This document shows positions 3,677 through 33,682 of a stretch of DNA of 64,000 nucleotides, piece after piece. The DNA is taken from assembly GCA_964536975.1 (NCBI GenBank), contig CAZHYS010000001.1, positions 34,329 to 98,328 on the forward strand, given 5' to 3'. The position numbers were made by a program, and so were the translations under genes. Within the stretch, counting starts at the first letter, position 1, and each line of letters opens with the position of its first letter. The stretch comes from an uncultured Gammaproteobacteria bacterium (lineage in GTDB: Bacteria > Patescibacteriota > Patescibacteriia > 2-01-FULL-39-33). The notes under the pieces were generated by a model, which made no database searches, was not told where the DNA came from, and saw nothing but the letters and a program-made list of their open reading frames with translations.

Positions 3677-4363
3677 ATGATCTCCGATCTATTTAATCTG
3701 TCTTTTGGATCGCACACCCTAAATTGGCAGGCCATTATCGGCAGCATTGTTTTGTCATTCGTTCTTTCTTTGATCGTTGCCATCGCCTACAAGAATACCC
3801 ATCGGGGCCTTTCTTATTCGCAGTCTTTTACCACGGCGTTGATTTTCATCGGTACCTTGGTGGCGATTATAATTATGGTTATCGGCAATAGCTTGGCTGC
3901 CGCTTTTGGCGCTTTCGGCGTGTTTTCCATGGTTCGTTTTCGGACGGCGATCAAAGATACTAAGGATGTTGTTTTTATTTTACTGGTGGTCGCGATCGGC
4001 CTGGCGGTCGGAACAATGAATTATTTTATTGCCATTGTCGCCACGCTATTTTCCATCGGCGCGATTTATGCCTTATCCAGGCTGAATTTTGGTTCAATTA
4101 GAAAGTATGATTTTGTCTTGACTTTTACCGCCGAAGTCAGTAATTTTTCCAATGATAAAATGCGGGAAGTTTTTAATCAGTATCTTAAGAGTGATAATTT
4201 GTTGAATGTGACCGCCAAAGAAGGCGGACGGTTTATTGATTACGGCTTCAATGTCAAATTCATCAAGACTGACGAGATGCAAAAATTTGTTGCCGCCTTA
4301 AGTCAAATTCCGGGTGTGAGCGACTTGGAGGTGATTAGCGCCAAAAATGATATTGAATATTAA
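3677..4363 (+). CDS. DUF4956-like integral membrane protein
   Basis: Four predicted TM helices then a soluble C-terminal domain; conserved CotH-VTC-DUF4956 gene order. Confidence 0.5.
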   Translation: MISDLFNLSFGSHTLNWQAIIGSIVLSFVLSLIVAIAYKNTHRGLSYSQSFTTALIFIGTLVAIIIMVIGNSLAAAFGAFGVFSMVRFRTAIKDTKDVVFILLVVAIGLAVGTMNYFIAIVATLFSIGAIYALSRLNFGSIRKYDFVLTFTAEVSNFSNDKMREVFNQYLKSDNLLNVTAKEGGRFIDYGFNVKFIKTDEMQKFVAALSQIPGVSDLEVISAKNDIEY

Positions 4364-6296
4364 AATGGCTTTTTTGAAAAATATATATTTCCGGTTGGTC
4401 TCTCTTTTTTTCCGTCTTGGCGCCCATAAGCGTCTGCCCGTTTTGCTTTATCATTCAATTGCTGATGACGGCGGCCGTCTTTCTATGAGCGCGGCGGAAT
4501 TTGAGAAGCAGCTGGCTTGGCTCAAGGCAAACGGCTATCAGTCCGTCTTGCCGGATCAAGTGGATGGATTTTTGCAGTCCAAAAAAATTCCCGCTCGTCG
4601 AGTGGTGATTTCTTTTGATGACGGCTTCAAGGATAATTATCACACGGCCTTGCCCCTTTTGGAAAAATACGGGTTTAGAGCCGCTTTTTTTATCGCCGCC
4701 AAATTCGTCGGCGGCAAAGCGGATTATTGCCGGGATTCTCTTGACCGAAACAGGCCGATGATGAGCGCGGAAGAAATAAAGGATTTAAAAGCGCGCGGAC
4801 ATTTTGTCGGCAATCATTTCTATTCCCATCGCAATTTAAGCGAGCTGGCTGCCGCGGAAGTTGCCGCCGAATTTGAAGCGGGGGAGAATTTTTTATCAAA
4901 CTTATTATCAGCCGGAGAAGCGGCCAAGTTTGTCGCTTATCCGCGCAATCGCCTTAATGATACGGTGCTGGCAGTAATGAAAGAGCGGGGGGTGAGGCTC
5001 GCTTTCGCCGGCCAGCCGGGGCTGGTAGACAAAAATTCCTCGTCTCTGATGTTGCCCAGGATTGAACCTGGATCCGGTAAGCCATTGGCTGTTTTCAAAG
5101 CCGAGTTGGCCCCAGGCCATTATTGGTTGAAAAATATTTTTAATTTTTTCAGGAAAAATTTCGGCCGGGGCGGGTTTTATTTTTTTTCTATTCTGGTTTT
5201 TCTTAGAATTATATTTTTGTTTATTTCCTTGGCCGGTTGGCCGGCCGGAACCGGCTTAGCCGATTCGTGGTGGACGACCTATGGCGGCGATGAACTGGGC
5301 TATTATAATTCCGCCGCCGCCCTTTTGCGGGGGGAATTCTTGCCCAAAGCGCATCCCTTGGGTTACCCTCTTTTTTTGGCGCCCTTCATAAAATTTTTCA
5401 ATTTCGATTCCTTCCTGGCGCTTTCTTCCTTCAATGTGTTTTTTGGCGGAGTCATTTTGTCTGTTTTGGCTGCCGGCCTGGTTTACTTATTGGGTTTAAG
5501 GATTTTGAAAAATAAATTTTCAGCTTATTTGCTTTCCCTGTTATTCTGTATTTATCCTTATTTTTTCTTTTTTATCTTCAAGGTGTTTTCCGGCCACGAC
5601 GCGGTTATGAACCAATTTGTCAGCAGTCGTTTCGGCCAGTTGATGTTTTATTTCGTCGCCTCTGACCCTTGGTCTCTTATTTTAATGTTGATTTCTCTGC
5701 TTTGGTTCCTGGATATCTTTAAAAATAAGAAAGAAGCGGGAAATTTCGGCCTGGGGTTTGTTTCTTCCTGGGCGGCGATTTCCAGGATTCAAAACGCCGC
5801 TATTTTGCCTTTATATTTTTTATTTTTTATTCTTGCCAAAAGGTATCGATCCGCGGCCGTATTTTTTGCCGGTTCTTTGCCGCTATTGTTTTTTCAAGCC
5901 TGGGCGAACCTGGCCGGACAGGGGTCATTATGGAGCACCGTCTACGGCCTCAAAAAGGGCTCTGATTTGTCAATCCCAATGATTAGTTGGTTTTATCCCC
6001 TAAGAGTGATAAAATACCCCTTAGACCATGGGCCGCTCCTGTTGGTAATTTTAGTGGTTTTTTTAGCTCTGATTTTTTTGGGCGGTCGCCGGTTGATAAA
6101 AAGAGACCGTTTATCCGGGTGGATTATTATTGCTTATCTTTTATCTAATTCCATTCCCTTATTGCTTTTGGAGCCGACCATGAGGAACCCCCGTTATTTT
6201 TTACCGGTGATTCCGGTGGTTTTTCTTCTGTTGTTTGTCGGTTTGGAAAATTTATCAATATTTTTAAAAGAAAAAATATGGCTGACAAAAAAATAA
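4347..6296 (+). CDS. Polysaccharide deacetylase (NodB homology) domain fused to a multi-pass GT-C/ArnT/PMT-like membrane domain
   Basis: N-terminus 'VVISFDDGFKDNYHTALPLLEKYGFRAAFF', 'HFYSHRNL' (NodB motifs); C-terminal 400 aa has at least 9 hydrophobic helices, Phe/Leu-rich. Confidence 0.65.
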   Translation: MILNIKMAFLKNIYFRLVSLFFRLGAHKRLPVLLYHSIADDGGRLSMSAAEFEKQLAWLKANGYQSVLPDQVDGFLQSKKIPARRVVISFDDGFKDNYHTALPLLEKYGFRAAFFIAAKFVGGKADYCRDSLDRNRPMMSAEEIKDLKARGHFVGNHFYSHRNLSELAAAEVAAEFEAGENFLSNLLSAGEAAKFVAYPRNRLNDTVLAVMKERGVRLAFAGQPGLVDKNSSSLMLPRIEPGSGKPLAVFKAELAPGHYWLKNIFNFFRKNFGRGGFYFFSILVFLRIIFLFISLAGWPAGTGLADSWWTTYGGDELGYYNSAAALLRGEFLPKAHPLGYPLFLAPFIKFFNFDSFLALSSFNVFFGGVILSVLAAGLVYLLGLRILKNKFSAYLLSLLFCIYPYFFFFIFKVFSGHDAVMNQFVSSRFGQLMFYFVASDPWSLILMLISLLWFLDIFKNKKEAGNFGLGFVSSWAAISRIQNAAILPLYFLFFILAKRYRSAAVFFAGSLPLLFFQAWANLAGQGSLWSTVYGLKKGSDLSIPMISWFYPLRVIKYPLDHGPLLLVILVVFLALIFLGGRRLIKRDRLSGWIIIAYLLSNSIPLLLLEPTMRNPRYFLPVIPVVFLLLFVGLENLSIFLKEKIWLTKK

Positions 6297-7162
6297 AATT
6301 CAGTGTCATTATTCCGGTTTTTAATGAGAGTGAGATAATCGGCCGCGTCATTGGCGAGCTGGGTTCTTTTTTGGAGAGTAATTATTCGGGGGATTACGAA
6401 ATTATCGCCGTCAACGACGGTTCGCGCGACGAATCATTGATGGTCTTGGAAAAGATAACTGCCTCTAATTTTTATTTTTTGAACAACATCTACAATAAAG
6501 GCTATGGCTCGTCCTTGAAGCGGGGCGCCAAGGAGGCGAGGGGTGAATGGCTGGTTTTTTATGACGGTGACGGCCAGCACACTCCCTTGGAATTGAAAAA
6601 ATTGCTTGATAATCTTGATAACTGCGATATGGCCGTCGGGGCGCGGAAGAAATACAATGGCCCGAAGTGGCGTCAGCCGGGAAAAAGGTTTATCTCCGCT
6701 TTGTCCAACTATTTGGTGAAATTCAAAATCCCGGATATTAATTCCGGCTTGCGGGTTGTCCGTAAGGAATGTTTTGACCGTTTTTCCCATCTTTATCCCA
6801 AAGGATTTTCTTTGAGCACGACCATCACCCTGGCCTTTCTGAAAGAGGGTTATACGGTTAAATATATTCCTGTTAATGTTGAAAGCCGGGTGGGGAAGAG
6901 TTCGGTGAAAATCGCCGACGGGTTTAATACGGTCAACTTAATCGTCAAATTGATAATGCTTTTTGCCCCATTAAGGATTTTTTTTCCCGCTTTTGTCGTT
7001 GTTTTTATCCTGTGCCTGGTCTCTTTATTTGTTGATTTGTTTGTTTACAGCTTTAATTTGAGCGAAAGCACGCTCATTCTTTTACTTAGCTCGATTTTGT
7101 TTTTATTTCTAGGTTTGATCGCCGATCAAATCGCCTCGCTCCGGCGGGAAATTAAGTCATAA
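6278..7162 (+). CDS. GT2 glycosyltransferase, polyprenyl-phosphate sugar synthase type (DPM1/ArnC/GtrB-like) with C-terminal TM helices
   Basis: 'FSVIIPVFNESEII...YEIIAVNDGSRDES', 'FYDGDGQH' DxD region, two C-terminal TM helices. Confidence 0.75.
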   Translation: MADKKIKFSVIIPVFNESEIIGRVIGELGSFLESNYSGDYEIIAVNDGSRDESLMVLEKITASNFYFLNNIYNKGYGSSLKRGAKEARGEWLVFYDGDGQHTPLELKKLLDNLDNCDMAVGARKKYNGPKWRQPGKRFISALSNYLVKFKIPDINSGLRVVRKECFDRFSHLYPKGFSLSTTITLAFLKEGYTVKYIPVNVESRVGKSSVKIADGFNTVNLIVKLIMLFAPLRIFFPAFVVVFILCLVSLFVDLFVYSFNLSESTLILLLSSILFLFLGLIADQIASLRREIKS

Positions 7163-7189
7163 CCGTCGCAGAAAGAATAAATTTAGCTT

Positions 7190-8911
7190 ATGAAAATTTT
7201 AGGCATTCACAATGGTCATGACGCCGGCGCCGCCCTGATTGAAGACGGCCGAGTTTTGGCGGCGGTCAACGAAGAGCGGATGAACCGGAAAAAGATGTAT
7301 TGGGGCGATCCGGTCTTGGCGATTGAAGAAGTTTTGCGGATTTCCAAAGTTAATCCGAAAGATATTGATTTTGTCGCTGTTTCCGGCATTACCAAGGGGG
7401 GCGGAATCAGCCCTGAGTTTGATCGAGTCAAGCCGATTAAAAAACTCGCCGACTATCTTTCTTTCATTCCATTTTTTAGAGGCCACTTGATAAAAAATAT
7501 TTATTGCTTTATTTTTTCCCGCCTAAGGAATGAAAAAAGCTTAACGGTGATAATCAGGGAAAAAATAAATTCTTCAGCGCCGTTGGAGTTTATTGAACAT
7601 CATGAGAGCCATGCCGCCGGAGCTTATTATTTTTCTCAATTCGGCGATAAACCGGAAGAAGATATTTTGATCGTTACGGTTGATTCGGCCGGCGACGGAT
7701 TATGTGCCACCATTTCGGTCGTGGAAAACGGACTAGTCAAGAGAAAAAATGAAACGGTTTTTTTCCATTCTCCGGGAGCGATTTATTCTTATGTCACGCA
7801 TAATCTTGGCTTCAAATATGGCCGGCATGAGGGGAAGATAACCGGCTTGGCCGCTTATGGCGATTCGGCTAAAACAGTCGGCATTTTCAGGAATATCTTA
7901 TCAGTGGATAAGGAAAAATTGGAATTTCGTTCGCGATTGGGGTGCTGGGGGAGACCCGGAGCGAGACGGCTCCATCTTTTGATGCAAGCGAAGAAGCGGG
8001 AAGATATCGCGGCCGGCGTTCAGAAAATAATTGAAGAGGTGACGGCCGATTTGGTTGAGGCGGCGGCCAATCGTTATAATAAAAAATTTGTTTGCTTAGC
8101 CGGCGGATTATTCGCCAATGTCAAGCTCAATCAGCGGATTTTGGAAATACCGAAAGTGAAAGATATTTATATCCATCAAAATATGGGCGATGGCGGCCAG
8201 GCGTTGGGCGCGGCTGTTTCCCTTTATGCCAAAAATAAAAATGGAATAAAACCGCTGGCCCTGAGCCATGTATATTTGGGCTCTGATTATGGCGACAGCG
8301 CGATCGTTGAGGCGCTTCAGGCCAGCAGTTTGGTTTTCAAAAAAGCGGATGACATTCATCGTCAAGTAGCGGAATTGCTAGCGGCGGGAAAAATTGTTGC
8401 CCGTTTTGCCGGCGCGATGGAGTATGGCCCGCGAGCGCTGGGCCATCGCAGCATTCTTTATCAAACCAGCGACAAGACAGTCAATGATTGGCTTAATAAG
8501 AAGTTAAAGAGAACGGAGTTTATGCCCTTCGCCCCGATTATTTTAAGAGAACGGGCAAATGAATATTTTGAAAATTTTGATCAGGACTGCTCCCACGCCG
8601 CCGATTTTATGACCGTCACTTATAATGTTTCCAAACAATGCGACGCTGATTCCCCGGCTATTACCCATATTGATAAAACCGCCCGGCCGCAAACCGTTGA
8701 TGCTGAAAATAATCATGATTCTTATCGCATCCTGGAAGAATATGAAAGGTTGACGGGCAAGCCGATACTTATCAATACCAGTTTTAACATGCACGAGGAG
8801 CCGATTGTCCGGACGCCGTCAGAGGCGATAGAAGCTTTTAGGGCAAGCGGATTGGATGTCTTGGCCATTGGCGACTATTTGGTTCTCGCCGCTGAAAATA
8901 AAATAAAATAA
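7190..8911 (+). CDS. Carbamoyltransferase, NodU/CmcH/TobZ family
   Basis: N-terminus 'MKILGIHNGHDAGAALIEDGRVLAAVNEER' (Kae1/YgjD-like carbamoyltransferase N domain), about 570 aa, C-terminal carbamoyltransferase domain. Confidence 0.8.
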   Translation: MKILGIHNGHDAGAALIEDGRVLAAVNEERMNRKKMYWGDPVLAIEEVLRISKVNPKDIDFVAVSGITKGGGISPEFDRVKPIKKLADYLSFIPFFRGHLIKNIYCFIFSRLRNEKSLTVIIREKINSSAPLEFIEHHESHAAGAYYFSQFGDKPEEDILIVTVDSAGDGLCATISVVENGLVKRKNETVFFHSPGAIYSYVTHNLGFKYGRHEGKITGLAAYGDSAKTVGIFRNILSVDKEKLEFRSRLGCWGRPGARRLHLLMQAKKREDIAAGVQKIIEEVTADLVEAAANRYNKKFVCLAGGLFANVKLNQRILEIPKVKDIYIHQNMGDGGQALGAAVSLYAKNKNGIKPLALSHVYLGSDYGDSAIVEALQASSLVFKKADDIHRQVAELLAAGKIVARFAGAMEYGPRALGHRSILYQTSDKTVNDWLNKKLKRTEFMPFAPIILRERANEYFENFDQDCSHAADFMTVTYNVSKQCDADSPAITHIDKTARPQTVDAENNHDSYRILEEYERLTGKPILINTSFNMHEEPIVRTPSEAIEAFRASGLDVLAIGDYLVLAAENKIK

Positions 8912-9855
8912 TGGCTGGAAATTACAAAAAAATATTTTCTCAATTTTTTTCTTATTCCTTGGCGATTATTATTTTTTTAATCCTAGTCAGGATTGTTTGG
9001 CATGATTGGCAAGAGATAACCAACTATAGTTTTATCTTCAATCCATTTAATTTACTTTTTGCTTTAATTTTTGGAATACTCAATGTCTACGCCTTGGCCG
9101 CGCTGTGGCGTTACCTTTTTGGGATCGTTGAAAAGGGGACTGTCTTGAGCGGTTGGGCCGGTTTTCGTATTTTTTTCTATGCTTGGTTTTCCCGTTATTT
9201 ACCCGGCCGGTTCTGGGCTCCGCTAAGCAAAATTTATATCGGCGCCAAAGAGGGTGTAGGCAAAAAATCGCTTGGCCTTGCTTCTGTTTTGGAGCTTTTG
9301 CTCTCCACGGCCAGCCAATTTATCTTGGTCTGGATTATTCTGGTTTTTATTTTCCGCGATCGCTTTCCGATTTTTTATTATACCATCGCCTTCGTCGCCG
9401 GCATGATAGCGATGATTTTTCTGCTTCATCCTCGCGTCCTGTCCTCAATTATCAATTTCGGGTTGAAAAAAATAAAGAAGAATCAGATTGACGTAAAGAA
9501 TTTTCCCGGCTATGGCGGATTAGTCAAGGTGACGGCATTATATTTTCTGCCGAACTTTTTTGTGGCCCTGTCTTTTGTTTTTTTGGCTCGGTCATTTTAT
9601 GATTTTACTTTTTCCCAGTCTATTTTTATGGTTGCTTCTTTTATTTTGGCTAATTTTTTGTCAAAGGTGGCTTTTTTTGTGCCGGTCGGCATCGGAGTCA
9701 GGGAGGGGCTTCTGGTCGCCATCCTGCAATTTTTTCTTCCGCTTTCCCTGGCGACGATGGTTTCCCTTTTATCTCGGGTTTGGTTTATTGCCCTTGATTG
9801 CCTGATTCTTGGCGGTGTTTTCTTGGCAGATAGATATTTTGTTGTTAAAAAATAA
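8911..9855 (+). CDS. Flippase-like / lysylphosphatidylglycerol-synthase-TM-region family membrane protein
   Basis: 314 aa, about 8 TM helices, commonly partnered with DPM-like GT2 genes. Confidence 0.45.
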   Translation: MAGNYKKIFSQFFSYSLAIIIFLILVRIVWHDWQEITNYSFIFNPFNLLFALIFGILNVYALAALWRYLFGIVEKGTVLSGWAGFRIFFYAWFSRYLPGRFWAPLSKIYIGAKEGVGKKSLGLASVLELLLSTASQFILVWIILVFIFRDRFPIFYYTIAFVAGMIAMIFLLHPRVLSSIINFGLKKIKKNQIDVKNFPGYGGLVKVTALYFLPNFFVALSFVFLARSFYDFTFSQSIFMVASFILANFLSKVAFFVPVGIGVREGLLVAILQFFLPLSLATMVSLLSRVWFIALDCLILGGVFLADRYFVVKK

Positions 9856-9863
9856 TTTTAAAT

Positions 9864-10751
9864 ATGGCCTATCTATTGAAAATATTTTTTAAAAAAGGGC
9901 TCAAGGAGCCGGGCAAGATTGTCGCCAACCTGAAGAATGTTTACCGTAATTTTTTTGTTGGCACGATGGTTGTTTCCTATCCCAAAACCGGCCGAACCTG
10001 GTTCCGGGTAATGCTGGGGAAATTTTTGGCGGACACCTACGCGCTTGATTCTGGTTTGCTGCTAAAAACTTATGAGCTTTCCCGAGCCGCCAAATTAGCG
10101 CCGATTAATTTTTCCCACGGCGGACGGTTTAATTTGATGGATGGCGGAGATTGGAAAAAGCTGCGGTTTAATCGGCGGTTATACCGGAATAAAAAAGTGA
10201 TTTTTATTATCCGCGATATCAGGGATACGCTGGTCTCTTCCTTTTTTCAAGAGAGCAAGCGCAACAAGGTATACGGCGGCGATATTAAGGATTTCTTGCG
10301 GGATGATAATTTGGGCATCAAAAAAATCATTTCTTTTTACCGCCTTTGGTTCAAGAATCAAAATCAGCCGAAAGCGTTTCTGCTTTTGCGATACGAGGAG
10401 ATGAGAAAAAATCCGGCTCTATCTCTCCGCCAGGCGGCGGAATTCATCGGTGTCGGCAATATCAGCGAAGAGAATATCGCGGCGGCGGTTGATTTTGCTT
10501 CTTTTGAAAATATGAAAAAAATGGAATCCCAGAGCGAGTTCAATGACAGTATGCTAAAGACCGGCCAGAGCGGTGACAGTGAAGCGTCCAAGGTGAGAAA
10601 AGGGAAAATCGGCGGTTTCAAAGAATATTTGGATGAAGACGACTTGCGTTTTATTGACGAGGCCTTAAGAGAACAGGCGGCGGAGGATTGCGATTGGTAT
10701 TTTTATCAAGAAAATAATCACGATGAATCAAATGGAACAGACAAATTATAA
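9864..10751 (+). CDS. PAPS-dependent sulfotransferase
   Basis: 5'-PSB-like motif 'YPKTGRTWFRVML' and 3'-PB-like 'RDIRDTLVSSF'; about 295 aa. Confidence 0.7.
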   Translation: MAYLLKIFFKKGLKEPGKIVANLKNVYRNFFVGTMVVSYPKTGRTWFRVMLGKFLADTYALDSGLLLKTYELSRAAKLAPINFSHGGRFNLMDGGDWKKLRFNRRLYRNKKVIFIIRDIRDTLVSSFFQESKRNKVYGGDIKDFLRDDNLGIKKIISFYRLWFKNQNQPKAFLLLRYEEMRKNPALSLRQAAEFIGVGNISEENIAAAVDFASFENMKKMESQSEFNDSMLKTGQSGDSEASKVRKGKIGGFKEYLDEDDLRFIDEALREQAAEDCDWYFYQENNHDESNGTDKL

Positions 10752-14910: not shown

Positions 14911-14914
14911 AGTT

Positions 14915-26214: not shown

Positions 26215-26233
26215 TTTTTTAATTTTTTTACTT

Positions 26234-26268
26234 CCCAAAATGCCCCCGATCACCGGGGGCGTTTTGGG
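26234..26268 (+). terminator. Hairpin downstream of UXS-like gene
   Basis: 'cccaaaatgcccccgatcaccgggggcgttttggg'. Confidence 0.5.
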
Positions 26269-26313
26269 ATTAGTTGGGTTGTTTTTTATCTTTAAAAATG
26301 TCATAATTCAGTT

Positions 26314-26973
26314 ATGAAAACACTGGTTATAATACCCGCCAAAGATGAAGCGGAAAAAATTTTTTCAGTCGTTGAAGGAGTTCATCAAAACGGTTTTGAA
26401 GTCTTGGTCGTGGATGACGGCTCTTGCGATAACACCGGTGAATTGGCCAAGTCTGCCGGAGCAAGAGTGGTCCGCCATCCCATCAATCGCGGCCAGGGCG
26501 CGGCAATAAAAACAGGAATTGATTATGCCTTGAAAATGGATTATGATGCGGCGGTTTTTTTTGATGCCGACGGCCAAATGACGGCAGCGGAGATAAGTAA
26601 AATCCTTATTCCTCTTGAAAAAGGCAGTCAGGTGGCGCTGGGATCGCGTTTTTTGGGCTTAGCCGAAAACATTCCCTGGTCCAAGTGGCTGACTTTGCGT
26701 CTGGCTTTGATTTTTACCCGGCTCAACACCGGCCTCCGGCTTACTGATACCCACAATGGTTTTCAAGCTTGGTGCCGCGATGCGCTTTTAAAAATCAATT
26801 TGACTCAAGATCGCCAGGCCTATGCCTCGCAGCTACTTCAAGAAATTGCTCGCAATAAAATAGCTTATCAGGAAGTGCCAGTTACTATTGTTTACACCGA
26901 TTATTCCAAGCGTAAAGGGCAGAGCATTTTCAATGCTTTCAATATTTTGTGGGATTTAATCATAAAAAAATAA
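26314..26973 (+). CDS. GT2 glycosyltransferase (DPM1-like)
   Basis: 'VIIPAKDEAEKI...VLVVDDGSCDNT', 'FFDADGQ'. Confidence 0.75.
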   Translation: MKTLVIIPAKDEAEKIFSVVEGVHQNGFEVLVVDDGSCDNTGELAKSAGARVVRHPINRGQGAAIKTGIDYALKMDYDAAVFFDADGQMTAAEISKILIPLEKGSQVALGSRFLGLAENIPWSKWLTLRLALIFTRLNTGLRLTDTHNGFQAWCRDALLKINLTQDRQAYASQLLQEIARNKIAYQEVPVTIVYTDYSKRKGQSIFNAFNILWDLIIKK

Positions 26974-26977: not shown

Positions 26978-27310
26978 ATGCTCATCCAGTTGATTTTGGT
27001 CGCGGCAATCATTCTTATTATTCTCCGGCTCATAATTCAGCTTAAGCGCCAAAGAATCTCTGGCGGAGAATTTGCCGGCTGGATTATCATCTGGCTGGCG
27101 GCAGCAGTAGTCATTTTGTTCCCGGATATAACCAGTTTTTTGGCGATAAAAGTCGGCGTTACCCGCGGCGTAGATTTGGTGATCTATGTTTCGGTGGTAT
27201 TGGTATTTTATTTGCTATTTAAGCTGTTGATGCGGATTGAAAAAATAGAAAGGGATATTACCGAACTGTGCCGCCGGATCGCCTTGGGTGATAAAGAAAA
27301 AAAAGATTGA
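26978..27310 (+). CDS. DUF2304-like small membrane protein
   Basis: 110 aa, two TM helices plus charged tail, classic GT2 partner position. Confidence 0.5.
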   Translation: MLIQLILVAAIILIILRLIIQLKRQRISGGEFAGWIIIWLAAAVVILFPDITSFLAIKVGVTRGVDLVIYVSVVLVFYLLFKLLMRIEKIERDITELCRRIALGDKEKKD

Positions 27311-28188
27311 CTATGTGTCCTATTTGCTTGGGCCAATCAAAGCTTTATCTTGATTACCAAAAAATCAGCAAGGGTGATTATCGTCTCTGGCGATGTGAAA
27401 AATGCGGCTTGATTTATACCGAGCCGTTGCCGTCACCCGGCTTCCTGGCGGATTTTTATCAGACTTATGACAGTTTTGGCGCTCAAGACAATTATTATAG
27501 AGATTTAAAAAATTATGGTAAAACGCGAGCGGGTCGGGAATTGACCCAAGAATTTTCCCGATTAGCCAAGCAGTATGGCTTCCATCGCGACCGGAAAATT
27601 TTGGACTTGGGGAGTGGCGGCGGAATGTTTTTGGACATCGCTACCCGGGCAGGGTTTACGGCATTGGGAGTAGAAGTCAGCTATCCGGCCGCGGAATTCG
27701 CTATAAATAATTTTGGCGTGGACTGCATGGTTGGCGATGTCTCGTCGTTTGAAACAGCAGAAAAATTTGGCGCGGTGTTCATGTGGGATTTATTGGAGCA
27801 TTTGCCGCGGCCAGATGAACTTTTGGTCAAAATCAGCGGCTGGCTCGATCGGGGCGGCTATCTGATTTTTGAAACGCCAAACAGTGAAGCATTGATAAAT
27901 AAAATTATAATTTTGTTGTTAAAATTAGGCATTACTTGGCCGGCTGGCTGGATGTTCGGCTATCATCATTTGTTTTGGCATTCGCGGCAGTCGTTGGAAT
28001 TGATGCTGACGCGTTGTCATTTTGAAATTTTGGAAGTAAGATTATCAAATACTTTGCCGGAACGGATCTTTCCTTGGAGCTTGAAATTTTTTCTTCCTCG
28101 CTTGGCTCTTATCGCCGTAAACGCGGCCGCCGCGGTAGTCGGCCGAAAAAATAAGATATTAATAATCGCCAGAAAAAGTGAAAACTAA
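27307..28188 (+). CDS. SAM-dependent methyltransferase with N-terminal Cys4 zinc-ribbon
   Basis: 'CPICLG...CEKCG'; motif I 'ILDLGSGGGMF'. Confidence 0.7.
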   Translation: MTMCPICLGQSKLYLDYQKISKGDYRLWRCEKCGLIYTEPLPSPGFLADFYQTYDSFGAQDNYYRDLKNYGKTRAGRELTQEFSRLAKQYGFHRDRKILDLGSGGGMFLDIATRAGFTALGVEVSYPAAEFAINNFGVDCMVGDVSSFETAEKFGAVFMWDLLEHLPRPDELLVKISGWLDRGGYLIFETPNSEALINKIIILLLKLGITWPAGWMFGYHHLFWHSRQSLELMLTRCHFEILEVRLSNTLPERIFPWSLKFFLPRLALIAVNAAAAVVGRKNKILIIARKSEN

Positions 28189-29233
28189 TCCCAAAATTAC
28201 TATTGTTATTGTCACCCACAATGCCAGGCACTATATCCAAGATTGTTTGGAGAGTGTCTGGCATCAGAATTATCCGTCAGCTGCGGTCAGGGTAGTGGTG
28301 GTGGATAATGATTCATCTGATAGCACGGTCGGGTTTATCCGCGAGGTTTTTCCGTGGGTTAAAGTGATAGAAAATCGGACCAACCGCGGCTTTGCCGAGG
28401 CCAATAATCAGGGATATTTTTTGGCGTTGAAGAACGGCTCGGAGTATCTGGCTCTCCTCAATCAAGATACAATCGTCTCCCGCGACTGGCTGAGGCGATT
28501 GGTTGACGCGATATCCTCGCGGCCAAAAATTGCCGGTGTTCAGCCGAAAATCCTGCTTCATCCCGAAACTAGCCTGATCAACAGCTTTGGCAATAGTTTG
28601 CATTTTTTAGGATTCGCTTATTGCAATAAATACCGCCAGCCGGACAAGGAACGGGAAACGGCGCCGTTTGAAGTGTCTTACCTTTCCGGCGCCGCTTGCC
28701 TTTTGAAAATGTCTACGCTCAGAGAAACCGGCCTATTTGATGAGCGGCTGTTTATGTATCATGAGGATGTTGATCTTGGTTGGCGCCTGCGTCTTTATGG
28801 CCAGCGGCTGCTGGTTGATCCATTGGCAGTCGTTTATCACAAATATTCCTTTAGTAAAGCCAAGTACAAGTTCTATTACATGGAACGTAACCGGCTAGTT
28901 GTGACTTTGGAGATTTATCATTTGGCGACGCTGATTTTGTTTTTTCCGGCGTGGTTGGCGATGGAGGCGGGGATTATCGCTTTGGCCGTTAAAAACGGTT
29001 GGTGGAGAGAAAAACTTAAAGGTTATCGCTGGGTAATATTTCATTGGCCGTCCATCCTGAGCCGGCGGCTGGATTATCAATTCAAATTGCGCCGCGTCAA
29101 GGATCGGGAGATTTTGCGATTATTCACCGGCTCAATTAAGTTTCAGGAAGTCAGTTATTGGCCGTTGACTTTGGTTATTAATCCACTGATGGAGCTTTAT
29201 TTCTGGCTGGCAAAAAAAATAATTTTTTGGTAA
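28178..29233 (+). CDS. GT2 glycosyltransferase (rhamnosyltransferase-like)
   Basis: 'ITIVIVTHNARHYIQDCLESV...VVVVDNDSSDST', 'GACLLKMSTL'. Confidence 0.75.
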   Translation: MKTNPKITIVIVTHNARHYIQDCLESVWHQNYPSAAVRVVVVDNDSSDSTVGFIREVFPWVKVIENRTNRGFAEANNQGYFLALKNGSEYLALLNQDTIVSRDWLRRLVDAISSRPKIAGVQPKILLHPETSLINSFGNSLHFLGFAYCNKYRQPDKERETAPFEVSYLSGAACLLKMSTLRETGLFDERLFMYHEDVDLGWRLRLYGQRLLVDPLAVVYHKYSFSKAKYKFYYMERNRLVVTLEIYHLATLILFFPAWLAMEAGIIALAVKNGWWREKLKGYRWVIFHWPSILSRRLDYQFKLRRVKDREILRLFTGSIKFQEVSYWPLTLVINPLMELYFWLAKKIIFW

Positions 29234-29265: not shown

Positions 29266-29300
29266 AACAAAAAACAACCCCGAATATTCGGGGTTGTTTT
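29266..29300. terminator. Bidirectional hairpin terminator between convergent genes
   Basis: 'aaaaaacaaccccgaatattcggggttgtttt'. Confidence 0.7.
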
Positions 29301-29309: not shown

Positions 29310-30017
29310 TTAATTTTCGTATCCGGTAAAATTTTCTTTTTTTATTCTTTCCGGCGGCACGCCGATTTCAACCAAGGCGCCAACAGCGGCCTCAACCATG
29401 GCCGCCGGTCCGGCGATCATATAGCAATCAGATCGCGTGTTGGTCCGATTACTGATGAGATTGGCGCTGATTTTTCTTTTTTCTCCCGGCCAATTTTTTT
29501 CTTCGGTCATTGTAAAAACAATTTCTATGTTTGGGTTGTTTTTTGCTAACTCGGTCAATTCGTCAAAAAAGGCGGTTGATCCTCGGTTGCGGTTGGAATA
29601 AATCAAGACGATTCGGTGGCCGGTTTTTTCGGCCGCGACATATTTTATCATACTCATAAAAGGCGTGATGCCGATTCCGCCGGCGATAAATGCCAGTCGG
29701 CAGCCGGTTTCGGCGGGTAGGATAAAATCTCCGCCAACATTACCAACTTCCACTTCTTCGCCCAAGGCCATTTCCGCCAAGGTTTTTTTGAATCCGCTGC
29801 CAGTCAACCGGGTGGCGATGGTTATTAAGCCGCTTTCTTGCGGTGTGGAAACAATTGAAAAAATTCTATTATTGCCGCGCGAGTCGGAGTATTTCAATTG
29901 CGGTATTGTCATAGTCAGATATTGTCCGGGCAAAAAAGACAAGGTTTCTTTTGCGCCAAAACTCGCCGCCAATGTATCGCGGGCGATAATTTTTTTGTCT
30001 TTGAGTATTGCTATCAT
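29310..30017 (-). CDS. FAD/NAD(P)-binding oxidoreductase (ferredoxin-NADP reductase / PyrK-like fold)
   Basis: 'RIFSIVSTP' FAD-binding, 'FIAGGIGITPFMSM' NAD-binding; start set at Met 30017 to avoid overlap. Confidence 0.6.
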   Translation of the reverse strand: MIAILKDKKIIARDTLAASFGAKETLSFLPGQYLTMTIPQLKYSDSRGNNRIFSIVSTPQESGLITIATRLTGSGFKKTLAEMALGEEVEVGNVGGDFILPAETGCRLAFIAGGIGITPFMSMIKYVAAEKTGHRIVLIYSNRNRGSTAFFDELTELAKNNPNIEIVFTMTEEKNWPGEKRKISANLISNRTNTRSDCYMIAGPAAMVEAAVGALVEIGVPPERIKKENFTGYEN

Positions 30018-30018
30018 A

Positions 30019-30495
30019 TTAGGCAGTAAAGCCCCTAATAGCGTTGCCGATGAAATAACTGGCGACAATCACCAAAATAGCAATGATAAGATGCTCGGCA
30101 ATTACTGGCAGGGGATGGTGATGATTATTTTTGGCCATCAGATAGTTGGCGATTATTAGGACCAGAATTCCCCAACCAATGCAGATGCCGACCGCTATTG
30201 GCAGAGAAAAGGCAAGAATTGGCACGACAAAAGTCAAGGCAAAAATAAATTTTGCCAAGAAAGTGAAAATAGTTGCTTGCCAGATTTCTTTGGCCGAGTG
30301 GACATTTTCTGCTTCTTCGGATACATGGATGCCCAGCGCGTCCGATAGAGCGTCGGACACGGCGATGATGATAATGCCGCCAATGACGACCAGCGCCGAC
30401 TGAGTGCCGGAATTAAGTCCGACAATAAGTCCCAGGGTTGTGATAATGCCGGAGGTAAGCCCGAAGCCCACTCCTTTTTTGACGGAGAGATTCAT
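30019..30495 (-). CDS. Small integral membrane protein (possibly VIT1/CCC1-like)
   Basis: 158 aa, 4-5 TM helices, Gly-rich; family assignment tentative. Confidence 0.4.
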   Translation of the reverse strand: MNLSVKKGVGFGLTSGIITTLGLIVGLNSGTQSALVVIGGIIIIAVSDALSDALGIHVSEEAENVHSAKEIWQATIFTFLAKFIFALTFVVPILAFSLPIAVGICIGWGILVLIIANYLMAKNNHHHPLPVIAEHLIIAILVIVASYFIGNAIRGFTA

Positions 30496-30516
30496 GGGAA
30501 TTTTTGGTTAAGTAAA

Positions 30517-31119
30517 TTATAATAACCTATTTTTTTGCAAGAAGCTTTTTATCGCCAGAAATATCTTTTTGTGTCCTTGAGAATTAGAATGCAGGCCGTC
30601 ATCCAAGTCATCAATAGTCAAAAGATCAAAAATTTCCAAAAAATAGACTTGGTTTTTCTCGGAAAGCTCTTTCAGTTTTTGGTTGTATAAAGAAAGATGT
30701 TTGTTAAAATAGTGATAATCCGTTTCCCAGGGAATCGGCGCGGCCTTTGATTCGTCAACTTTTTTACAGCCGCAAAAAACTATTTTATCGGTAAACTTTT
30801 TTGACTTATCTATGAGCTGCTGGATATTCTTTTCAAATTCCTCAGCGGCGACCATTTGCCGGTTTTGCGATTTTATGAAGATGGAGTCATTGTCGCCGAT
30901 TGAAAAAATAATAACCGCCGGCTGCCTAGCTTCTGCTTCCACATCAAACCTGGCCAATAATTCTCTGGTCGTATCTCCGGAGACGCCAAGATTGTAGACA
31001 AACATGTCTTTGTCTTGGGAATCAATAAATAATCGCAAACGATTGACCCAGCCGCCTTTTTCTTTGTCCCACGCGCCCCAGGTTGAGCTGGCGCCAAAAA
31101 TGCAAATATTCTGTTCCAT
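30517..31119 (-). CDS. SGNH/GDSL hydrolase
   Basis: 'ICIFGASSTWGAWD' block I, 'GDND' block III, 'DGLHSN' block V. Confidence 0.75.
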   Translation of the reverse strand: MEQNICIFGASSTWGAWDKEKGGWVNRLRLFIDSQDKDMFVYNLGVSGDTTRELLARFDVEAEARQPAVIIFSIGDNDSIFIKSQNRQMVAAEEFEKNIQQLIDKSKKFTDKIVFCGCKKVDESKAAPIPWETDYHYFNKHLSLYNQKLKELSEKNQVYFLEIFDLLTIDDLDDGLHSNSQGHKKIFLAIKSFLQKNRLL

Positions 31120-31133
31120 GCGATAGTATTACT

Positions 31134-32459
31134 TTAATAAATATCCGAATATTTTTTTCTTTCCCAATCAGTCACTTGTGTAGCAAATTCATTCCACTCT
31201 TTATTTTTGACATAGAGATATTTTTCCAACAAATCTCGGCCAAGCACCTTTTCAATCAGCGGATCTCTCGCCATCTCGCCGAGCGCTTCTTTGAGCGAAG
31301 TCGGCAAAGTGTCAATATTTTTCCGACTCAAATCGTCGCCGTCAAAATCATAAACATTTTCTTCTACTGCTTCCGGCGCTGCTGATTTTTCTCGGATTCC
31401 TTCCAGGCCGCTGGCAATCATCACGGCGAAGGCCAGATAGGGATTGCAAGTCGGGTCGGGACAGCGCAATTCTATCCGGGCGGCATCTTGCTTGTCGGCG
31501 TGAAAGCGGGGGACGCGGATAAGCGCCGAGCGGTTCATTCCCGCCCAAGTGATATACACCGGCGCTTCAAAGCCGGAAACCAGCCGCTTGTAGGAATTGA
31601 CCGTCGGGCACAAAATGGCGCTCATTGCTTTGATGTGCTTCATCTGTCCGGCGATAAAGCGGTAGGCGGTTTCCGACAGCCGGTATTTGTTGTCTTTATT
31701 ATAGAACAAATTCTGGTTTTTTTCTTTGTCAAACAGGCTCTGATGGATGTGCATGCCCGAGCCGGCCGCGTTCATGATCGGCTTGGGAATAAAAGTCGCT
31801 TTAAGACCGTGCCGCTGGGCAATTTTTTTGACCGTGTATTTCAGCGTCAGAACTTTGTCGGCGATATTCAGCGCGTTGCCATATTTGAAATCTATCTCGT
31901 ATTGCCCTTGGCCGACCTCGTGGTGGGAAGTCTCCACTTCAATGCCGAATTGTTGCAAGGCGGAGGCAACCTCTTTAATGAATTTATAGCCCTCATGGGA
32001 AGAAAAATCAAAATAGCCGCTGTAATCAATCGGCGCGTCTTGGCCGCCATCATCCTTAAACAAATAAAACTCCGCCTCCGGGCCGACCTTCGCTTCGTAT
32101 CCAGCCGCTGTCGCGTCGGCGATGATTTTTTTCAGAATAAAACGCGGGTCGCCGGCAAACGGCTGTCCGTCCGGGCTATAAATGTCACAGATTATTCGCG
32201 CGGTTTTGCCGTTTTCCGCCAGCCAGGGCACGGGCGAATAAGTGGCCAGATCCGGTTTCAAAAATAAATCGCTTTCTTGAATGCGGGCAAATCCTTCTAC
32301 TGACGAGCCATCAAACCAGACGCCGTTTTCAATGGCGTTTTTGGCGCCGGCCGCCGGGATGATTATTTCTTTGACGACTCCCAATAAATCGGTAAATTGC
32401 AGGGTAATGAATTCAATTCCATCCTCCTTAAGACGAGACAAGATTTCTTCAGTGCTCAT
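31134..32459 (-). CDS. glnA: Glutamine synthetase type I
   Basis: 441 aa; GS beta-grasp N-terminus 'IEFITLQFTDLLGVVKEI', 'NGSGMHIHQSL'. Confidence 0.85.
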   Translation of the reverse strand: MSTEEILSRLKEDGIEFITLQFTDLLGVVKEIIIPAAGAKNAIENGVWFDGSSVEGFARIQESDLFLKPDLATYSPVPWLAENGKTARIICDIYSPDGQPFAGDPRFILKKIIADATAAGYEAKVGPEAEFYLFKDDGGQDAPIDYSGYFDFSSHEGYKFIKEVASALQQFGIEVETSHHEVGQGQYEIDFKYGNALNIADKVLTLKYTVKKIAQRHGLKATFIPKPIMNAAGSGMHIHQSLFDKEKNQNLFYNKDNKYRLSETAYRFIAGQMKHIKAMSAILCPTVNSYKRLVSGFEAPVYITWAGMNRSALIRVPRFHADKQDAARIELRCPDPTCNPYLAFAVMIASGLEGIREKSAAPEAVEENVYDFDGDDLSRKNIDTLPTSLKEALGEMARDPLIEKVLGRDLLEKYLYVKNKEWNEFATQVTDWERKKYSDIY

Positions 32460-32515
32460 ACTTTGACGAAAATGTTTTAAAAATATTATACTTAAACCAT
32501 ACTAATCTTACTTTA

Positions 32516-33682
32516 ATGGAAGCAAAAAATCAACTTCCCCGGGTCGCCATTGTCGTTTGCGCTTGGCCGCCCCAGGGCGGCGGTATCGGCAATAATGCCT
32601 ACTATCACGCTAAGCGCCTGCCTGCCCTCGGCTACCGGACGACGGTATTCACGCCGGATTTTCCCAAGATCAAAAAACTCAAAGCGGAAAGATTTTCGCT
32701 GGAATATCTGCCGGTCGTTCTGCCGCTCGGTAAGGCGGGGTTTCTTTTTTCGCTAATGAAAAAATTGGCGGATTTTGACATCATTCATCTTTACTATCCG
32801 TTTTTTGGCACTGACCTGATCGTTTGGTGGTTTAAGATTTTTAATCGCCGGCCAAAATTGGTACTGCATTATGAAATGGATCCGGTCGGCCGCGGCGGCA
32901 AGAAGATTCTTTTTTGGATTTATATCAAATTATTTCTCGGAGTAGTCGTAAAAGCCAGCGACGCGGTCGGTGTTCTGTCGTGGGACAATGCCAGGAATTC
33001 TTATCTCAAAAAATATCTCAAGAAATATCCGCGGAAATTCGTTCATCTGCCCAACGGCGTGGATGTTAATATCTTTCGACCCGGCCTGAAATATTCAGCG
33101 CTCAAAGATGGGCTGGGCATTGCCGCCGGGGAAAAAGTGATTGCTTTTGCCGGCGGCTTGGGGCGACTTCATTTTTTCAAGGGCGTGGATGTCTTGTTGC
33201 GGGCGTTTAAAAAATTGCCCGGCCGGAGAAACAAATTGCTCATCATCGGCGATGGCGATAAGCGGGCTGATTACGAAAATTTGGCGCGAGAGCTCGGCTT
33301 GGCTGATCGGGTGATTTTTACCGGCTGGGTGGCCAATGAAGATTTGCCTGGCTACTACAATCTGGCGGATGTTTTTGTCCTGCCGTCTACGGCGCGGACA
33401 GAAAGCTTTGGTATTGTCGCGGCCGAAGCCCAGGCCTGCGGCGTGCCGGCGATTGTCAGTGATTGGCCGGGAGCACGGGAGACGATTATTGACGGTCAGA
33501 CCGGCCTTTTGGCTCGGCCGAAAGACGAAGACGACTTGGCGGCCAAGATTTCCCGATTGCTGGCCGACAAAGATTTGCGGCGGGAAATGTCTCTGGCCGG
33601 CCGTCGGCGAGTGGAGGAGTCGTATGATTGGGACAAAGTGATCAAAAAGATAGACGAGGTTTATAGAAAATTATTGAACTAA
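32516..33682 (+). CDS. GT4 glycosyltransferase
   Basis: 'GGGIG' N-terminus, 'ESFGIVAAEAQACGVPAIVS' EX7E. Confidence 0.8.
   Translation: MEAKNQLPRVAIVVCAWPPQGGGIGNNAYYHAKRLPALGYRTTVFTPDFPKIKKLKAERFSLEYLPVVLPLGKAGFLFSLMKKLADFDIIHLYYPFFGTDLIVWWFKIFNRRPKLVLHYEMDPVGRGGKKILFWIYIKLFLGVVVKASDAVGVLSWDNARNSYLKKYLKKYPRKFVHLPNGVDVNIFRPGLKYSALKDGLGIAAGEKVIAFAGGLGRLHFFKGVDVLLRAFKKLPGRRNKLLIIGDGDKRADYENLARELGLADRVIFTGWVANEDLPGYYNLADVFVLPSTARTESFGIVAAEAQACGVPAIVSDWPGARETIIDGQTGLLARPKDEDDLAAKISRLLADKDLRREMSLAGRRRVEESYDWDKVIKKIDEVYRKLLN

Follow-up and report, generated by a model that had tools for sequence, protein, structure and literature searches.

The 64-kb stretch of DNA analysed here (contig CAZHYS010000001.1, hereafter the window) carries, between positions 4347 and 33682, a large set of genes for cell-envelope glycans, among which lie a sulfotransferase dependent on 3'-phosphoadenosine 5'-phosphosulfate (PAPS) and the genes cysD and cysN-cysC for the synthesis of PAPS itself (Table 1). 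Taken as a whole, the best explanation, with a probability of roughly 0.62, is a private PAPS supply and a cytoplasmic sulfotransferase working inside an Arn/Gtr-like lipid-carrier module of a bacterium of the Candidate Phyla Radiation (CPR). The two parts of this reading are not equally firm. That the PAPS is made for glycan sulfation is highly probable, and the specific lipid-carrier route has about an even chance of being correct. An original prediction, made from the letters of the window, had proposed PAPS production for sulfating a glycan rather than for sulfur assimilation, and this proposal is supported by the intact sulfotransferase, the intact PAPS genes and the neighbourhoods of the latter in CPR genomes.

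The open reading frame (ORF) at the centre of the proposal had been taken for a PAPS-dependent sulfotransferase, and its Pfam match and intact functional residues bear this out. The protein of 295 amino acids reaches 87 bits against PF00685 (cut-off 22) and covers profile positions 5–252 of 255. Its solved relatives in the PDB are the plant enzymes SOT16/18 (E 2e-13), Teg12/14, StaL and the cytosolic SULTs. The 5'-phosphosulfate-binding (5'-PSB) loop is S38-YPKTGRTW46, with K41 and T45, and aligns with YPKTGTTW of SOT16/18; S38, K41, G43, R44, T45 and W46 do not vary among 41 homologues. In the same homologues, the 3'-phosphate-binding (3'-PB) residues R117, D121 and S125, located within IIRDIRDTLVSS, as well as K243, R245 and G247 of the C-terminal motif KVRKGKIGGF, are invariant or at least 90% conserved, and the two motifs align to RD..DT.IS and RKGKVGDW of the plant enzymes. 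The predicted catalytic base, H85 (FSHGG), likewise shows no variation within the family. Judged from these alignments, the PAPS-binding and catalytic residues are intact; the 5'-PSB and 3'-PB motifs, whose lack had been named as a reason to abandon the prediction, are present and align to those of solved plant and animal sulfotransferases. A scan for transmembrane (TM) segments found none in the protein, and NCBIfam returned no match to it. The family is widespread; the genome scan and the metagenome scan each found more than 570 loci, and its members occur in many phyla.

The PAPS genes, predicted as cysD at 20124 and a cysN-cysC fusion at 21053, were confirmed by NCBIfam scores above the cut-offs and by conserved motifs. 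Besides the score listed in Table 1, CysD gave 427 bits against 413 and, for TIGR02039, 425.5 against 396.6, and its PP-loop SIGKDS is present. The CysN-CysC fusion keeps the GTPase motifs G1, G3 and G4 (GSVDDGKS, DVPG and NKMD) and the P-loop GLSGSGKS of its adenosine 5'-phosphosulfate (APS) kinase part. By motif and curated cut-off, both proteins are judged to be catalytically intact and to make PAPS. As for the reductive pathway, none of the ORFs scanned across the 64 kb matched cysH, cysI, cysJ, sir or cysK, and the sole tblastn match of CPR CysH in the window was cysD itself (26% identity). The claim that the window holds no cysH, cysIJ or cysK is upheld by these scans. Neither a CysQ-like phosphatase nor a permease of the TauE/SulP type was detected in the 64 kb.

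The genomic context of related genes was examined over 10 kb for nine of the closest CysN-CysC relatives, all of CPR type. The cysD-cysNC pair lies among glycan genes, either glycosyltransferases or nucleotide-sugar enzymes, in all nine neighbourhoods. A sulfotransferase is found within 10 kb of it in seven (L168, L169, L170, L171, L173, L174 and L176), which amount to roughly five independent cases, as L168 and L174 on the one hand and L169 and L176 on the other are alike in architecture. These loci hold one or two sulfotransferases each, belonging to Sulfotransfer_1, _2 or _3, and several of the Pfam matches are weak or faint. An Inositol_P (CysQ-like) gene adjoins in four of the nine; this family includes the phosphatase that removes 3'-phosphoadenosine 5'-phosphate (PAP), the by-product of sulfotransfer. 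Owing to the seven loci with a sulfotransferase and the constant glycan setting, dedicated PAPS production for glycan sulfation is a recurrent pattern in CPR bacteria. A small DUF2061 membrane protein is encoded beside cysD or cysNC in the two look-alike pairs, L168/L174 and L169/L176, and a TauE-family permease near cysD-cysNC in L173; both are candidate partners for sulfate uptake, and neither occurs in the window.

A different explanation would have CysD and CysN-CysC feed a PAPS reductase and a sulfite reductase encoded elsewhere, the glycan setting being incidental and the sulfotransferase drawing on the same pool. Indeed, sat, cysC and cysN of CPR bacteria have been read as genes of sulfate reduction or sulfur cycling (PMC7906910; PMC9698310), and a PAPS synthase in CPR has been mentioned with no acceptor given (PMC12114108). 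Moreover, the visible part of the genome is 64 kb, and cysH, sir or cysK could be encoded in the remainder. One of the nine neighbourhoods (L172, Candidatus Magasanikbacteria, GCA_002716765.1, positions 8388–11812) carries a CysH-like gene directly 5' of cysD-cysNC. Its product, an APS/PAPS reductase-like protein of 222 amino acids, has the C-terminal ECGLH and the CC...CxxC cysteines; the setting is a NeuB/nonulosonic-acid sugar cluster, and no sulfotransferase lies within 10 kb. Another locus, L175, likewise has no sulfotransferase nearby. Against assimilation stand the lack of cysH, cysIJ/sir and cysK in the window, the frequency of sulfotransferases within 10 kb in the CPR loci, and the position of the PAPS genes among glycan rather than amino-acid genes in every one of them. 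The CysQ-like genes argue in the same direction, PAP being what a sulfotransferase leaves behind, and the fused APS kinase commits sulfate to PAPS, which is the sulfotransferase donor. Assimilation is therefore regarded as very improbable for the window. The usual partner of cysDNC in CPR bacteria is a glycan sulfotransferase, with reductive use in at least one lineage. A literature search that left out most subscription journals found no work linking CPR or Patescibacteria with sulfotransferases.

The second part of the preferred reading, the lipid-carrier module, comes from the genes next to the sulfotransferase and from their conservation in its five closest relatives with usable context. 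The metagenomic locus L088, whose sulfotransferase is 48% identical, has the order Sulfotransfer_3-like, APS kinase (2.7 kb from the sulfotransferase), PMT_2 (a GT-C glycosyltransferase), LPG_synthase_TM, sulfotransferase and GT2 (glycosyltransferase family 2). A metagenome-assembled genome (MAG) of Patescibacteria (L006) has LPG_synthase_TM, methyltransferase, GT2, PMT_2, GDP-sugar enzymes, GT2 and sulfotransferase, and the alphaproteobacterium Pelagibius (L005) has NodB, GT2, LPG_synthase_TM, sulfotransferase, PMT_2 and Wzy_C. The longest counterpart is that of a Saccharibacteria MAG (L007), comprising a homologue of the membrane domain described below, GT2, a second sulfotransferase, LPG_synthase_TM, sulfotransferase, a FemAB-like ORF, NodB, methyltransferase, several GT4 (glycosyltransferase family 4) genes and a carbamoyltransferase, and the shortest, from Anaerolineae (L008), has LPG_synthase_TM, sulfotransferase and GT2. 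An LPG_synthase_TM gene and an ArnC-like GT2 accompany the sulfotransferase in all five, the former directly 5' of it in L005, L007, L008 and L088, and no more than 7 kb away in L006. Four of the five, like the window, also encode a GT-C protein, and NodB is shared by L005, L007 and the window. By conserved synteny, the sulfotransferase belongs to an Arn/Gtr-like lipid-carrier module that extends across several phyla. A seeming fusion of the sulfotransferase with the LPG_synthase_TM protein in L005 was rejected; the two are read in different frames, and GC-rich sequence accounts for the long ORF, which is an artefact.

In the window, the GT2 of this module is of the type that makes polyprenyl-phosphate sugars. 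Its best PDB match is ArnC (9hwj, E 3.7e-16 over residues 7–280), alongside dolichol-phosphate mannose synthase (DPMS, 5mlz) and GtrB (5ekp), all of which load a sugar onto polyprenyl phosphate. The protein has two C-terminal TM helices (segments at 218–288) and is 56% identical to its counterpart in L007. The neighbouring NodB deacetylase, whose gene starts at 4365 (643 amino acids) rather than 4347 in public gene calls, shows the motifs SFDDG, HFYSH and YPR. It is predicted to be cytoplasmic because no TM segment or signal peptide precedes it.

The membrane domain fused to this NodB had no match in Pfam and none to PDB sequences or profiles in direct searches, and its class was obtained through homologues, profile comparison and structure prediction. 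Among 37 homologues, seven match PMT_2, one GT87 and one GT22. Comparison of the family profile with the PMT_2 protein of L088 in hhalign gave 93% probability (E 3e-7), and the near-invariant aspartate of GGDELGYY (D56 of the domain, about Asp-315 in the whole protein, at least 90% conserved) was aligned with the first-loop acidic residue of that protein. The AlphaFold (AF2) model of the domain has a pLDDT of 92.6 and a pTM of 0.92. In a Foldseek search of the PDB with this model, the top 16 matches were all GT-C enzymes (PglB, STT3, ALG9, PimE and Pmt4), with ALG3, AftB and EmbB lower, and the best was PglB (E 6.5e-4, TMq about 0.5). According to the model, the domain has a GT-C fold and represents a previously unclassified transferase. 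The family is rare (a search of 1.8 billion representative proteins yielded 70 relatives at E<1e-3) and occurs in a stand-alone form (~385 amino acids) and a NodB-fused form (~630 amino acids).

The remaining members of the module could decorate and move the carrier-linked sugar. The carbamoyltransferase finds NovN (E 1e-63), TobZ and GdmN in the PDB, and the S-adenosylmethionine (SAM) methyltransferase that overlaps the sulfotransferase gene is 41% identical to its L007 counterpart. The LPG_synthase_TM protein has about eight or more TM segments and no sequence match in the PDB; by analogy with MprF, it is a candidate flippase for a decorated lipid-linked sugar. No TM segments or signal peptides were found before or in the NodB domains, nor in the sulfotransferase, the methyltransferases and the carbamoyltransferase, which agrees with modification of the sugar on the cytoplasmic side prior to flipping. 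The donors PAPS, SAM and carbamoyl phosphate also belong to the cytoplasm.

From these families and motifs, together with the fold, the predicted topology and the conserved synteny, an order of steps with putative substrates and a putative acceptor can be proposed. The ArnC-like GT2 would load a sugar, probably an N-acetylhexosamine (HexNAc), onto polyprenyl phosphate on the cytoplasmic side of the membrane, and the cytoplasmic NodB domain would strip off the N-acyl group, as ArnD and NaxD do. The sulfotransferase would then add sulfate from PAPS to the carrier-linked sugar, with N-sulfation as one possibility. At the same stage, the methyltransferase, the carbamoyltransferase and a FemAB-like domain may add methyl, carbamoyl and aminoacyl groups. 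The LPG_synthase_TM protein, or else Wzx, would flip the decorated lipid-linked sugar, and the GT-C domain fused to NodB would transfer it outside to an envelope acceptor, for which a wall polymer, a lipid and a protein all come into consideration. The acceptor glycan may be built by the phosphoglycosyltransferase (PGT), two GT4 enzymes and Wzx. Additionally, GtrA, a UDP-glucuronate decarboxylase-like (UXS-like) protein, a DPMS-like GT2 and DUF2304 may constitute another carrier module, perhaps one that handles a pentose.

That the sulfotransferase might act on a lipid, a peptide or a small metabolite, its link to the glycan genes being merely physical, also deserves consideration. The closest solved relatives named above are small-molecule sulfotransferases, and LPG_synthase_TM is best known from the lysyl-phosphatidylglycerol flippase, so the product might conceivably be a membrane glycolipid or lipid that bears sulfate. 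Nevertheless, synteny with an ArnC-like GT2 and a GT-C protein persists across Patescibacteria, Alphaproteobacteria and Chloroflexota, the gene forms one tight unit with glycan-decoration genes that it overlaps or adjoins, and Pfam scans revealed no genes for non-ribosomal peptide synthetases, polyketide synthases or lipid synthesis nearby. A non-glycan acceptor consequently seems as improbable as assimilation.

A stronger competitor to the lipid-carrier route, though still unlikely, is the sulfation of a classical repeat unit. According to this explanation, the PGT primes undecaprenyl phosphate, GT4 and GT2 enzymes build an oligosaccharide on undecaprenyl diphosphate, and the product loses acetyl and gains sulfate, methyl and carbamoyl groups in the cytoplasm before Wzx flips it for polymerisation or ligation outside, while the ArnC-like GT2, the LPG_synthase_TM protein and the GT-C domain add a separate side-branch. 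The Wzx/Wzy-pathway parts needed at the start are available in the form of a priming PGT and a MOP-family flippase. The PGT is full-length, of WbaP/WcaJ type (377 bits against a TIGR03025 cut-off of 296), and has two GT4 genes adjacent to it. The flippase is fused to a FemAB-like domain and encoded two genes from the sulfotransferase. Furthermore, CPR sulfotransferases lie beside Wzx genes in L168, L174 and L169, where no GT-C protein was called, and sulfated capsular polysaccharide (CPS) clusters of such logic have been published (PMC11641403). For the later steps, however, no Wzy polymerase (Wzy_C), O-antigen ligase or chain-length regulator (Wzz, GNVR) was matched by any window ORF, the unassigned polytopic proteins being only GT-C-like. 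The PGT and one GT4 are on the opposite strand in another transcription unit, and the neighbours conserved across phyla are GT2, LPG_synthase_TM and GT-C; a PGT is near only one of 160 relatives. The original prediction had inferred one multiply decorated envelope glycan from one cluster. Sulfation of a glycan is supported, and the single glycan from a single cluster is not; there are several modules, and synteny ties the sulfotransferase to the Arn/Gtr-like one and not obviously to the PGT and Wzx.

Besides the PGT, GT4 and Wzx set, the limited view of the genome and the loci L172 and L175, several points weigh against the lipid-carrier reading with its private PAPS supply. The flippase role of LPG_synthase_TM for polyprenyl-linked sugars is extrapolated from MprF; the module has this protein, in a conserved position, instead of a small flippase of the GtrA or ArnE/F family, and a true GtrA lies 15 kb off in the second module. 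Co-regulation is put in question by the distance of 9.4 kb between cysD and the sulfotransferase, with a divergent promoter region between them. At 160 loci of more distant sulfotransferase relatives, tblastn of the window proteins against 10-kb flanks found CysNC only in L148 and an APS kinase only in L088, which suggests that most members of the family use PAPS made elsewhere; the test is a weak one, as cysD would lie almost at the edge of such flanks in the window itself. The CPR assignment is based on only two proteins, and a PEP-CTERM protein with an N-terminal signal-like segment (38692–39327, minus strand) is unusual for a CPR bacterium.

Those two proteins are enolase and CysN-CysC, from whose relatives the window is likely of Patescibacteria (CPR) origin. 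The enolase (55219–56466) is 89% identical to proteins labelled only 'bacterium' and 71–78% identical to those of named Patescibacteria, Candidatus Buchananbacteria, Portnoybacteria and Falkowbacteria. CysN-CysC is 50–61% identical to a large set of fusions of ~600 amino acids, and its named relatives are almost all Patescibacteria (Andersenbacteria, Peregrinibacteria, Falkowbacteria and Magasanikbacteria). The earlier guess of a reduced-genome bacterium is in keeping with these relationships. No rRNA, tRNA, Rfam match or ribosomal protein occurs in the window. The PGT falls just below the cut-off of the XrtA/PEP-CTERM EpsB_2 family (358.8 against 393), and no exosortase was seen in the window.

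Several known systems resemble parts of this arrangement. In the Arn pathway (ArnC/ArnD/ArnEF/ArnT) and in FlmF2/NaxD/FlmK of Francisella, an aminosugar is transferred to lipid A; these systems and Gtr/CsbB share a logic in which one sugar is attached to polyprenyl phosphate, may lose its N-acyl group while still in the cytoplasm, and is then flipped and joined to an envelope molecule outside. The window resembles Arn in its polyprenyl-phosphate GT2, its cytoplasmic de-N-acylase of the NodB family, a candidate flippase and a GT-C enzyme, with a UXS/ArnA-like decarboxylase in the region. It differs in having LPG_synthase_TM instead of ArnE/F, in the fusion of NodB to GT-C, and in the added sulfotransferase, methyltransferase and carbamoyltransferase. 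As a CPR cell should contain no lipid A, the acceptor must also differ from that of Arn. The three-component systems GtrA/GtrB/GtrC and, for teichoic acids, CsbB/GtcA/YfhO combine a GT2 that makes C55-P-sugar with a small flippase and a GT-C enzyme so as to modify an envelope polymer already in place beyond the membrane, and they operate in monoderms too. Their counterpart in the window is GtrA with the DPMS-like GT2 at 24635–26973. These systems transfer unmodified Glc or GlcNAc, whereas the sugar of the window would first be deacetylated and sulfated.

The decoration enzymes recall the Nod-factor toolkit, in which NodP (a CysD homologue), NodQ (a CysN-CysC fusion), NodH, NodB, NodS and NodU decorate a HexNAc-based glycan. 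The window likewise has CysD, CysN-CysC, a PAPS sulfotransferase, NodB, a SAM methyltransferase and a carbamoyltransferase of NodU type, with lipid-carrier and GT-C components in place of NodC, NodA and NodIJ. Membership in the Nod-factor pathway was considered and rejected, as neither the NodA nor the NodC family (nor NodIJ) is matched and the carbamoyltransferase scores 162 bits for NodU in NCBIfam against a cut-off of 1000. De-N-acetylation of HexNAc is coupled to PAPS-dependent sulfation in the heparan N-deacetylase/N-sulfotransferase (NDST) as well. That enzyme of the Golgi combines both functions in one protein and works on a polymer; its deacetylase does not belong to the NodB type, and its sulfotransferase uses a Glu base. 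A speculative and improbable extension of the present reading is that NodB, the PAPS sulfotransferase and GT2/GT-C form a carrier-level bacterial counterpart of NDST, making an N- (or O-)sulfated aminosugar on polyprenyl phosphate that NodB-GT-C grafts to the envelope; in CPR bacteria, this would give the 'orphan' cysDNC a purpose and could mediate attachment to host cells.

Among systems for sulfated products, the CPS clusters of Vibrio sp. KMM 8419 and Cobetia marina KMM 1449 contain their own cysDNC (PMC11641403; PMC11766843), and PAPS genes with sulfotransferases in a polysaccharide cluster have been called a "hallmark" of sulfated polysaccharide synthesis (PMC11641403). Sulfated CPS and exopolysaccharide clusters share with the window a second, dedicated PAPS gene set placed with sulfotransferases in the polysaccharide cluster. 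They belong, however, to Gram-negative marine hosts with large genomes and use ABC-transporter (Kps) or Wzx/O-antigen routes, whereas the window has a CPR-like host, a sulfotransferase in a GT2/NodB/flippase-like/GT-C module and a fused cysN-cysC. In Mycobacterium tuberculosis, CysD/CysNC supplies PAPS to the Stf sulfotransferases and sulfolipid-1 (PMC4373884; PMC3141025), so that a CysN-CysC fusion feeds sulfotransferases for sulfated envelope glycolipids there too. Unlike in the window, the complex also feeds CysH assimilation, and the sulfotransferases are of other families and are encoded apart from cysDNC.

A dedicated PAPS supply for glycan sulfation is thus already known from NodPQ/NodH, the sulfated CPS clusters and the mycobacterial sulfolipids. 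Three aspects appear to be new with respect to the searchable literature, namely the recurrence of PAPS, sulfotransferase and glycan genes in CPR genomes, where they are now read as sulfate reduction, the presence of a sulfotransferase within an Arn/Gtr-like lipid-carrier module conserved across phyla, and the family of NodB-GT-C fusions. CPR bacteria account for much of the diversity of bacteria, and their episymbiotic lifestyle is believed to be carried by their surfaces. Very little is known of their envelope glycans. The contexts suggest that cysDNC in these genomes mostly feeds sulfotransferases in glycan clusters, which would change how the annotation is read. Moreover, the cross-phyla GT2/NodB/GT-C-sulfotransferase module and the unclassified NodB-fused GT-C family are testable objects. 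Few bacterial carbohydrate sulfotransferases have a known acceptor, and such enzymes are sought for the production of sulfated glycans.

Table 1. Genes and gene blocks of the glycan region and its 5' flank, with the search result on which each assignment is based
Feature	Positions	Strand	Evidence and remarks
CotH kinase (968 aa, beta-helix/NosD-like region)	2-2908	+	
VTC-domain protein	2912-3664	+	
DUF4956 membrane protein	3677-4363	+	
NodB deacetylase (residues ~16-256) fused to 9-10-TM GT-C-fold domain (~270-649)	4347-6296	+	Polysacc_deac_1 E 1.4e-20
Polyprenyl-phosphate sugar synthase-type GT2 (ArnC/GtrB/DPMS class)	6278-7162	+	Glycos_transf_2 E 5.8e-26
O-carbamoyltransferase, carbamoyl-phosphate-dependent (NodU/TobZ/NovN family)	7190-8911	+	Carbam_trans_N E 9e-45, Carbam_trans_C E 4e-60
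LPG_synthase_TM (MprF-flippase-like) polytopic protein	8911-9855	+	PF03706 E 5.7e-11; directly 5' of sulfotransferase
PAPS-dependent sulfotransferase, cytoplasmic (Sulfotransfer_1, PF00685)	9864-10751	+	Pfam E 1.7e-24
SAM methyltransferase 1	10723-11427	+	Methyltransf_25 E 7.5e-20; 29-nt overlap with sulfotransferase gene
FemAB-like domain (residues 1-~225) fused to Wzx/MOP flippase (~257-688), 688 aa	11424-13490	+	Polysacc_synt, Polysacc_synt_3 over 257-593
B12-binding radical SAM protein (class-B methylase type)	13501-14910	+	Radical_SAM E 2e-22 and weak B12-binding match
SAM methyltransferase 2	14915-15568	+	Methyltransf_11 E 8e-13
Second NodB-family deacetylase	15577-16335	+	Pfam E 5.3e-21; motifs WDDG, HTITH, YPR
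GT4	16316-17557	+	Glycos_transf_1 E 2e-30
GT4	17542-18624	-	Glycos_transf_1 E 1.7e-38; one minus-strand unit with PGT
Priming PGT, large polytopic, WbaP/WcaJ type	18684-20021	-	Bac_transf E 2.5e-68; divergent from cysD
CysD, ATP sulfurylase small subunit	20124-21047	+	PRK05253 431.8 bits against 195
CysN-CysC fusion (ATP sulfurylase GTPase subunit and APS kinase)	21053-22894	+	PRK05506 780.4 bits against 715
S8 subtilase, N-terminal signal/TM segment	23038-24708	+	Between cysNC and GtrA
GtrA small membrane protein (flippase-type)	24635-25129	+	GtrA_DPMS_TM E 4.8e-28; first gene of second carrier module
UXS-like short-chain dehydrogenase/reductase (UDP-glucuronate decarboxylase)	25204-26214	+	Pfam Epimerase
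DPMS-like GT2, catalytic domain only	26314-26973	+	Pfam E 2.7e-20; PDB DPMS 5mlz E 4e-12, also ArnC
DUF2304, small 4-TM protein	26978-27310	+	Pfam E 3e-25
SAM methyltransferase 3	27307-28188	+	Methyltransf_23 E 1.4e-18
GT2	28178-29233	+	Pfam E 1.6e-21; last gene before hairpin 29271-29300
FNR-like oxidoreductase, VIT1, GDSL hydrolase, glnA (glutamine synthetase)	29310-32459	-	Unrelated housekeeping block
GT4	32516-33682	+	Glycos_transf_1 E 1.7e-44

The region had been described as one super-cluster of about 30 kb, spanning 4347–33682. Profile searches of the ORFs found each gene named at that time at its coordinates, including the PGT, the Wzx-like flippase, the two NodB proteins, GtrA and the UXS-like protein (Pfam, NCBIfam and PDB searches) and the carbamoyltransferase, the three SAM methyltransferases and the B12-radical SAM protein (Pfam and PDB). 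The single, uninterrupted cluster did not survive, as it is split by the subtilase and by the minus-strand block at 29310–32459; the region consists of several modules rather than one cluster for one glycan, and its last 4 kb are mostly unrelated housekeeping genes. The count of at least nine GT2/GT4 genes was also too high. There are three GT2 and three GT4, six in all, inside 4347–33682, besides one GT-C domain and the PGT, and nine are obtained only when those at 37368, 60532 and 62442 are added. According to the ORF list, the plus-strand genes from 4347 to 17557 are packed, with overlaps or gaps of at most 28 nt. A good promoter-like site at 22973–23001 is the subtilase's own, and the position of the subtilase between cysNC and GtrA is repeated on an independent Logan contig (L085). 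At 29271–29300, the glycan genes are parted from the minus-strand block by a strong 13-bp hairpin that resembles a bidirectional terminator, and the membership of the GT4 gene beyond that block is doubtful. The same cluster, with identical proteins and order, occurs on independent Logan assemblies (SRR11845623-35 and SRR31200661, five runs), and it is consequently not an assembly artefact of one sample.

Some of the accessory glycan genes have further features. The N-terminal domain of the FemAB-Wzx fusion, for which the PDB search gave no match, is 39% identical to the stand-alone ORF of L007, which itself matches FemAB at 25.9 bits against a cut-off of 24; FemAB-like genes also neighbour sulfotransferases in L168 and L174. 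The B12-binding radical SAM protein has only sub-threshold matches to PhpK, HpnJ and BchE-like families in NCBIfam. Enzymes of this kind recur in sulfation and glycan clusters (L171, 19151–20620; L076, ~7858–8889), CPR genomes included, and CPR bacteria are not known to make cobalamin. The second NodB protein is predicted to be soluble and cytoplasmic because it has no signal peptide or TM segment. A suggestion from NCBIfam that the short-chain dehydrogenase/reductase is not UXS-like was overturned by its best PDB match, human UXS1 (E 1e-61, 212 bits, full length), the runner-up reaching 96 bits. The DUF2304 protein is possibly the membrane partner of the DPMS-like GT2 beside it.

Directly 5' of the glycan genes, the CotH/VTC/DUF4956 trio (2–4363, plus strand) has gaps of 3–12 nt and may share their transcript; it is not present in the syntenic Saccharibacteria locus L007. 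On the 3' side, four consecutive plus-strand ORFs of 190, 170, 113 and 297 amino acids at 34354–36945 have no Pfam family, and their GC content of ~0.50, compared with 0.42–0.45 in the glycan region, may indicate foreign DNA. A protein of 450 amino acids with at least eight predicted TM segments and no Pfam match (43154–44506, plus strand) looks by its topology like a further membrane glycosyltransferase of GT-C type. Genes of a Group-3b-type NiFe hydrogenase, coding for Fer4_22 beta-like, FAD/NAD gamma-like, small and large subunits, follow at 44937–52435 (plus strand), and amid them lie two genes of the 23S_rRNA_IVP family (45915–46289 and 52082–52435), a HypC-radical SAM-BATS fusion (47437–48687) and a 1-kb stretch with no ORF of at least 100 amino acids (49595–50610). 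Finally, two tandem paralogues of cofactor-independent phosphoglycerate mutase (519 and 528 amino acids) are encoded at 57374–60523 (plus strand), beside enolase and phosphoglycerate kinase.

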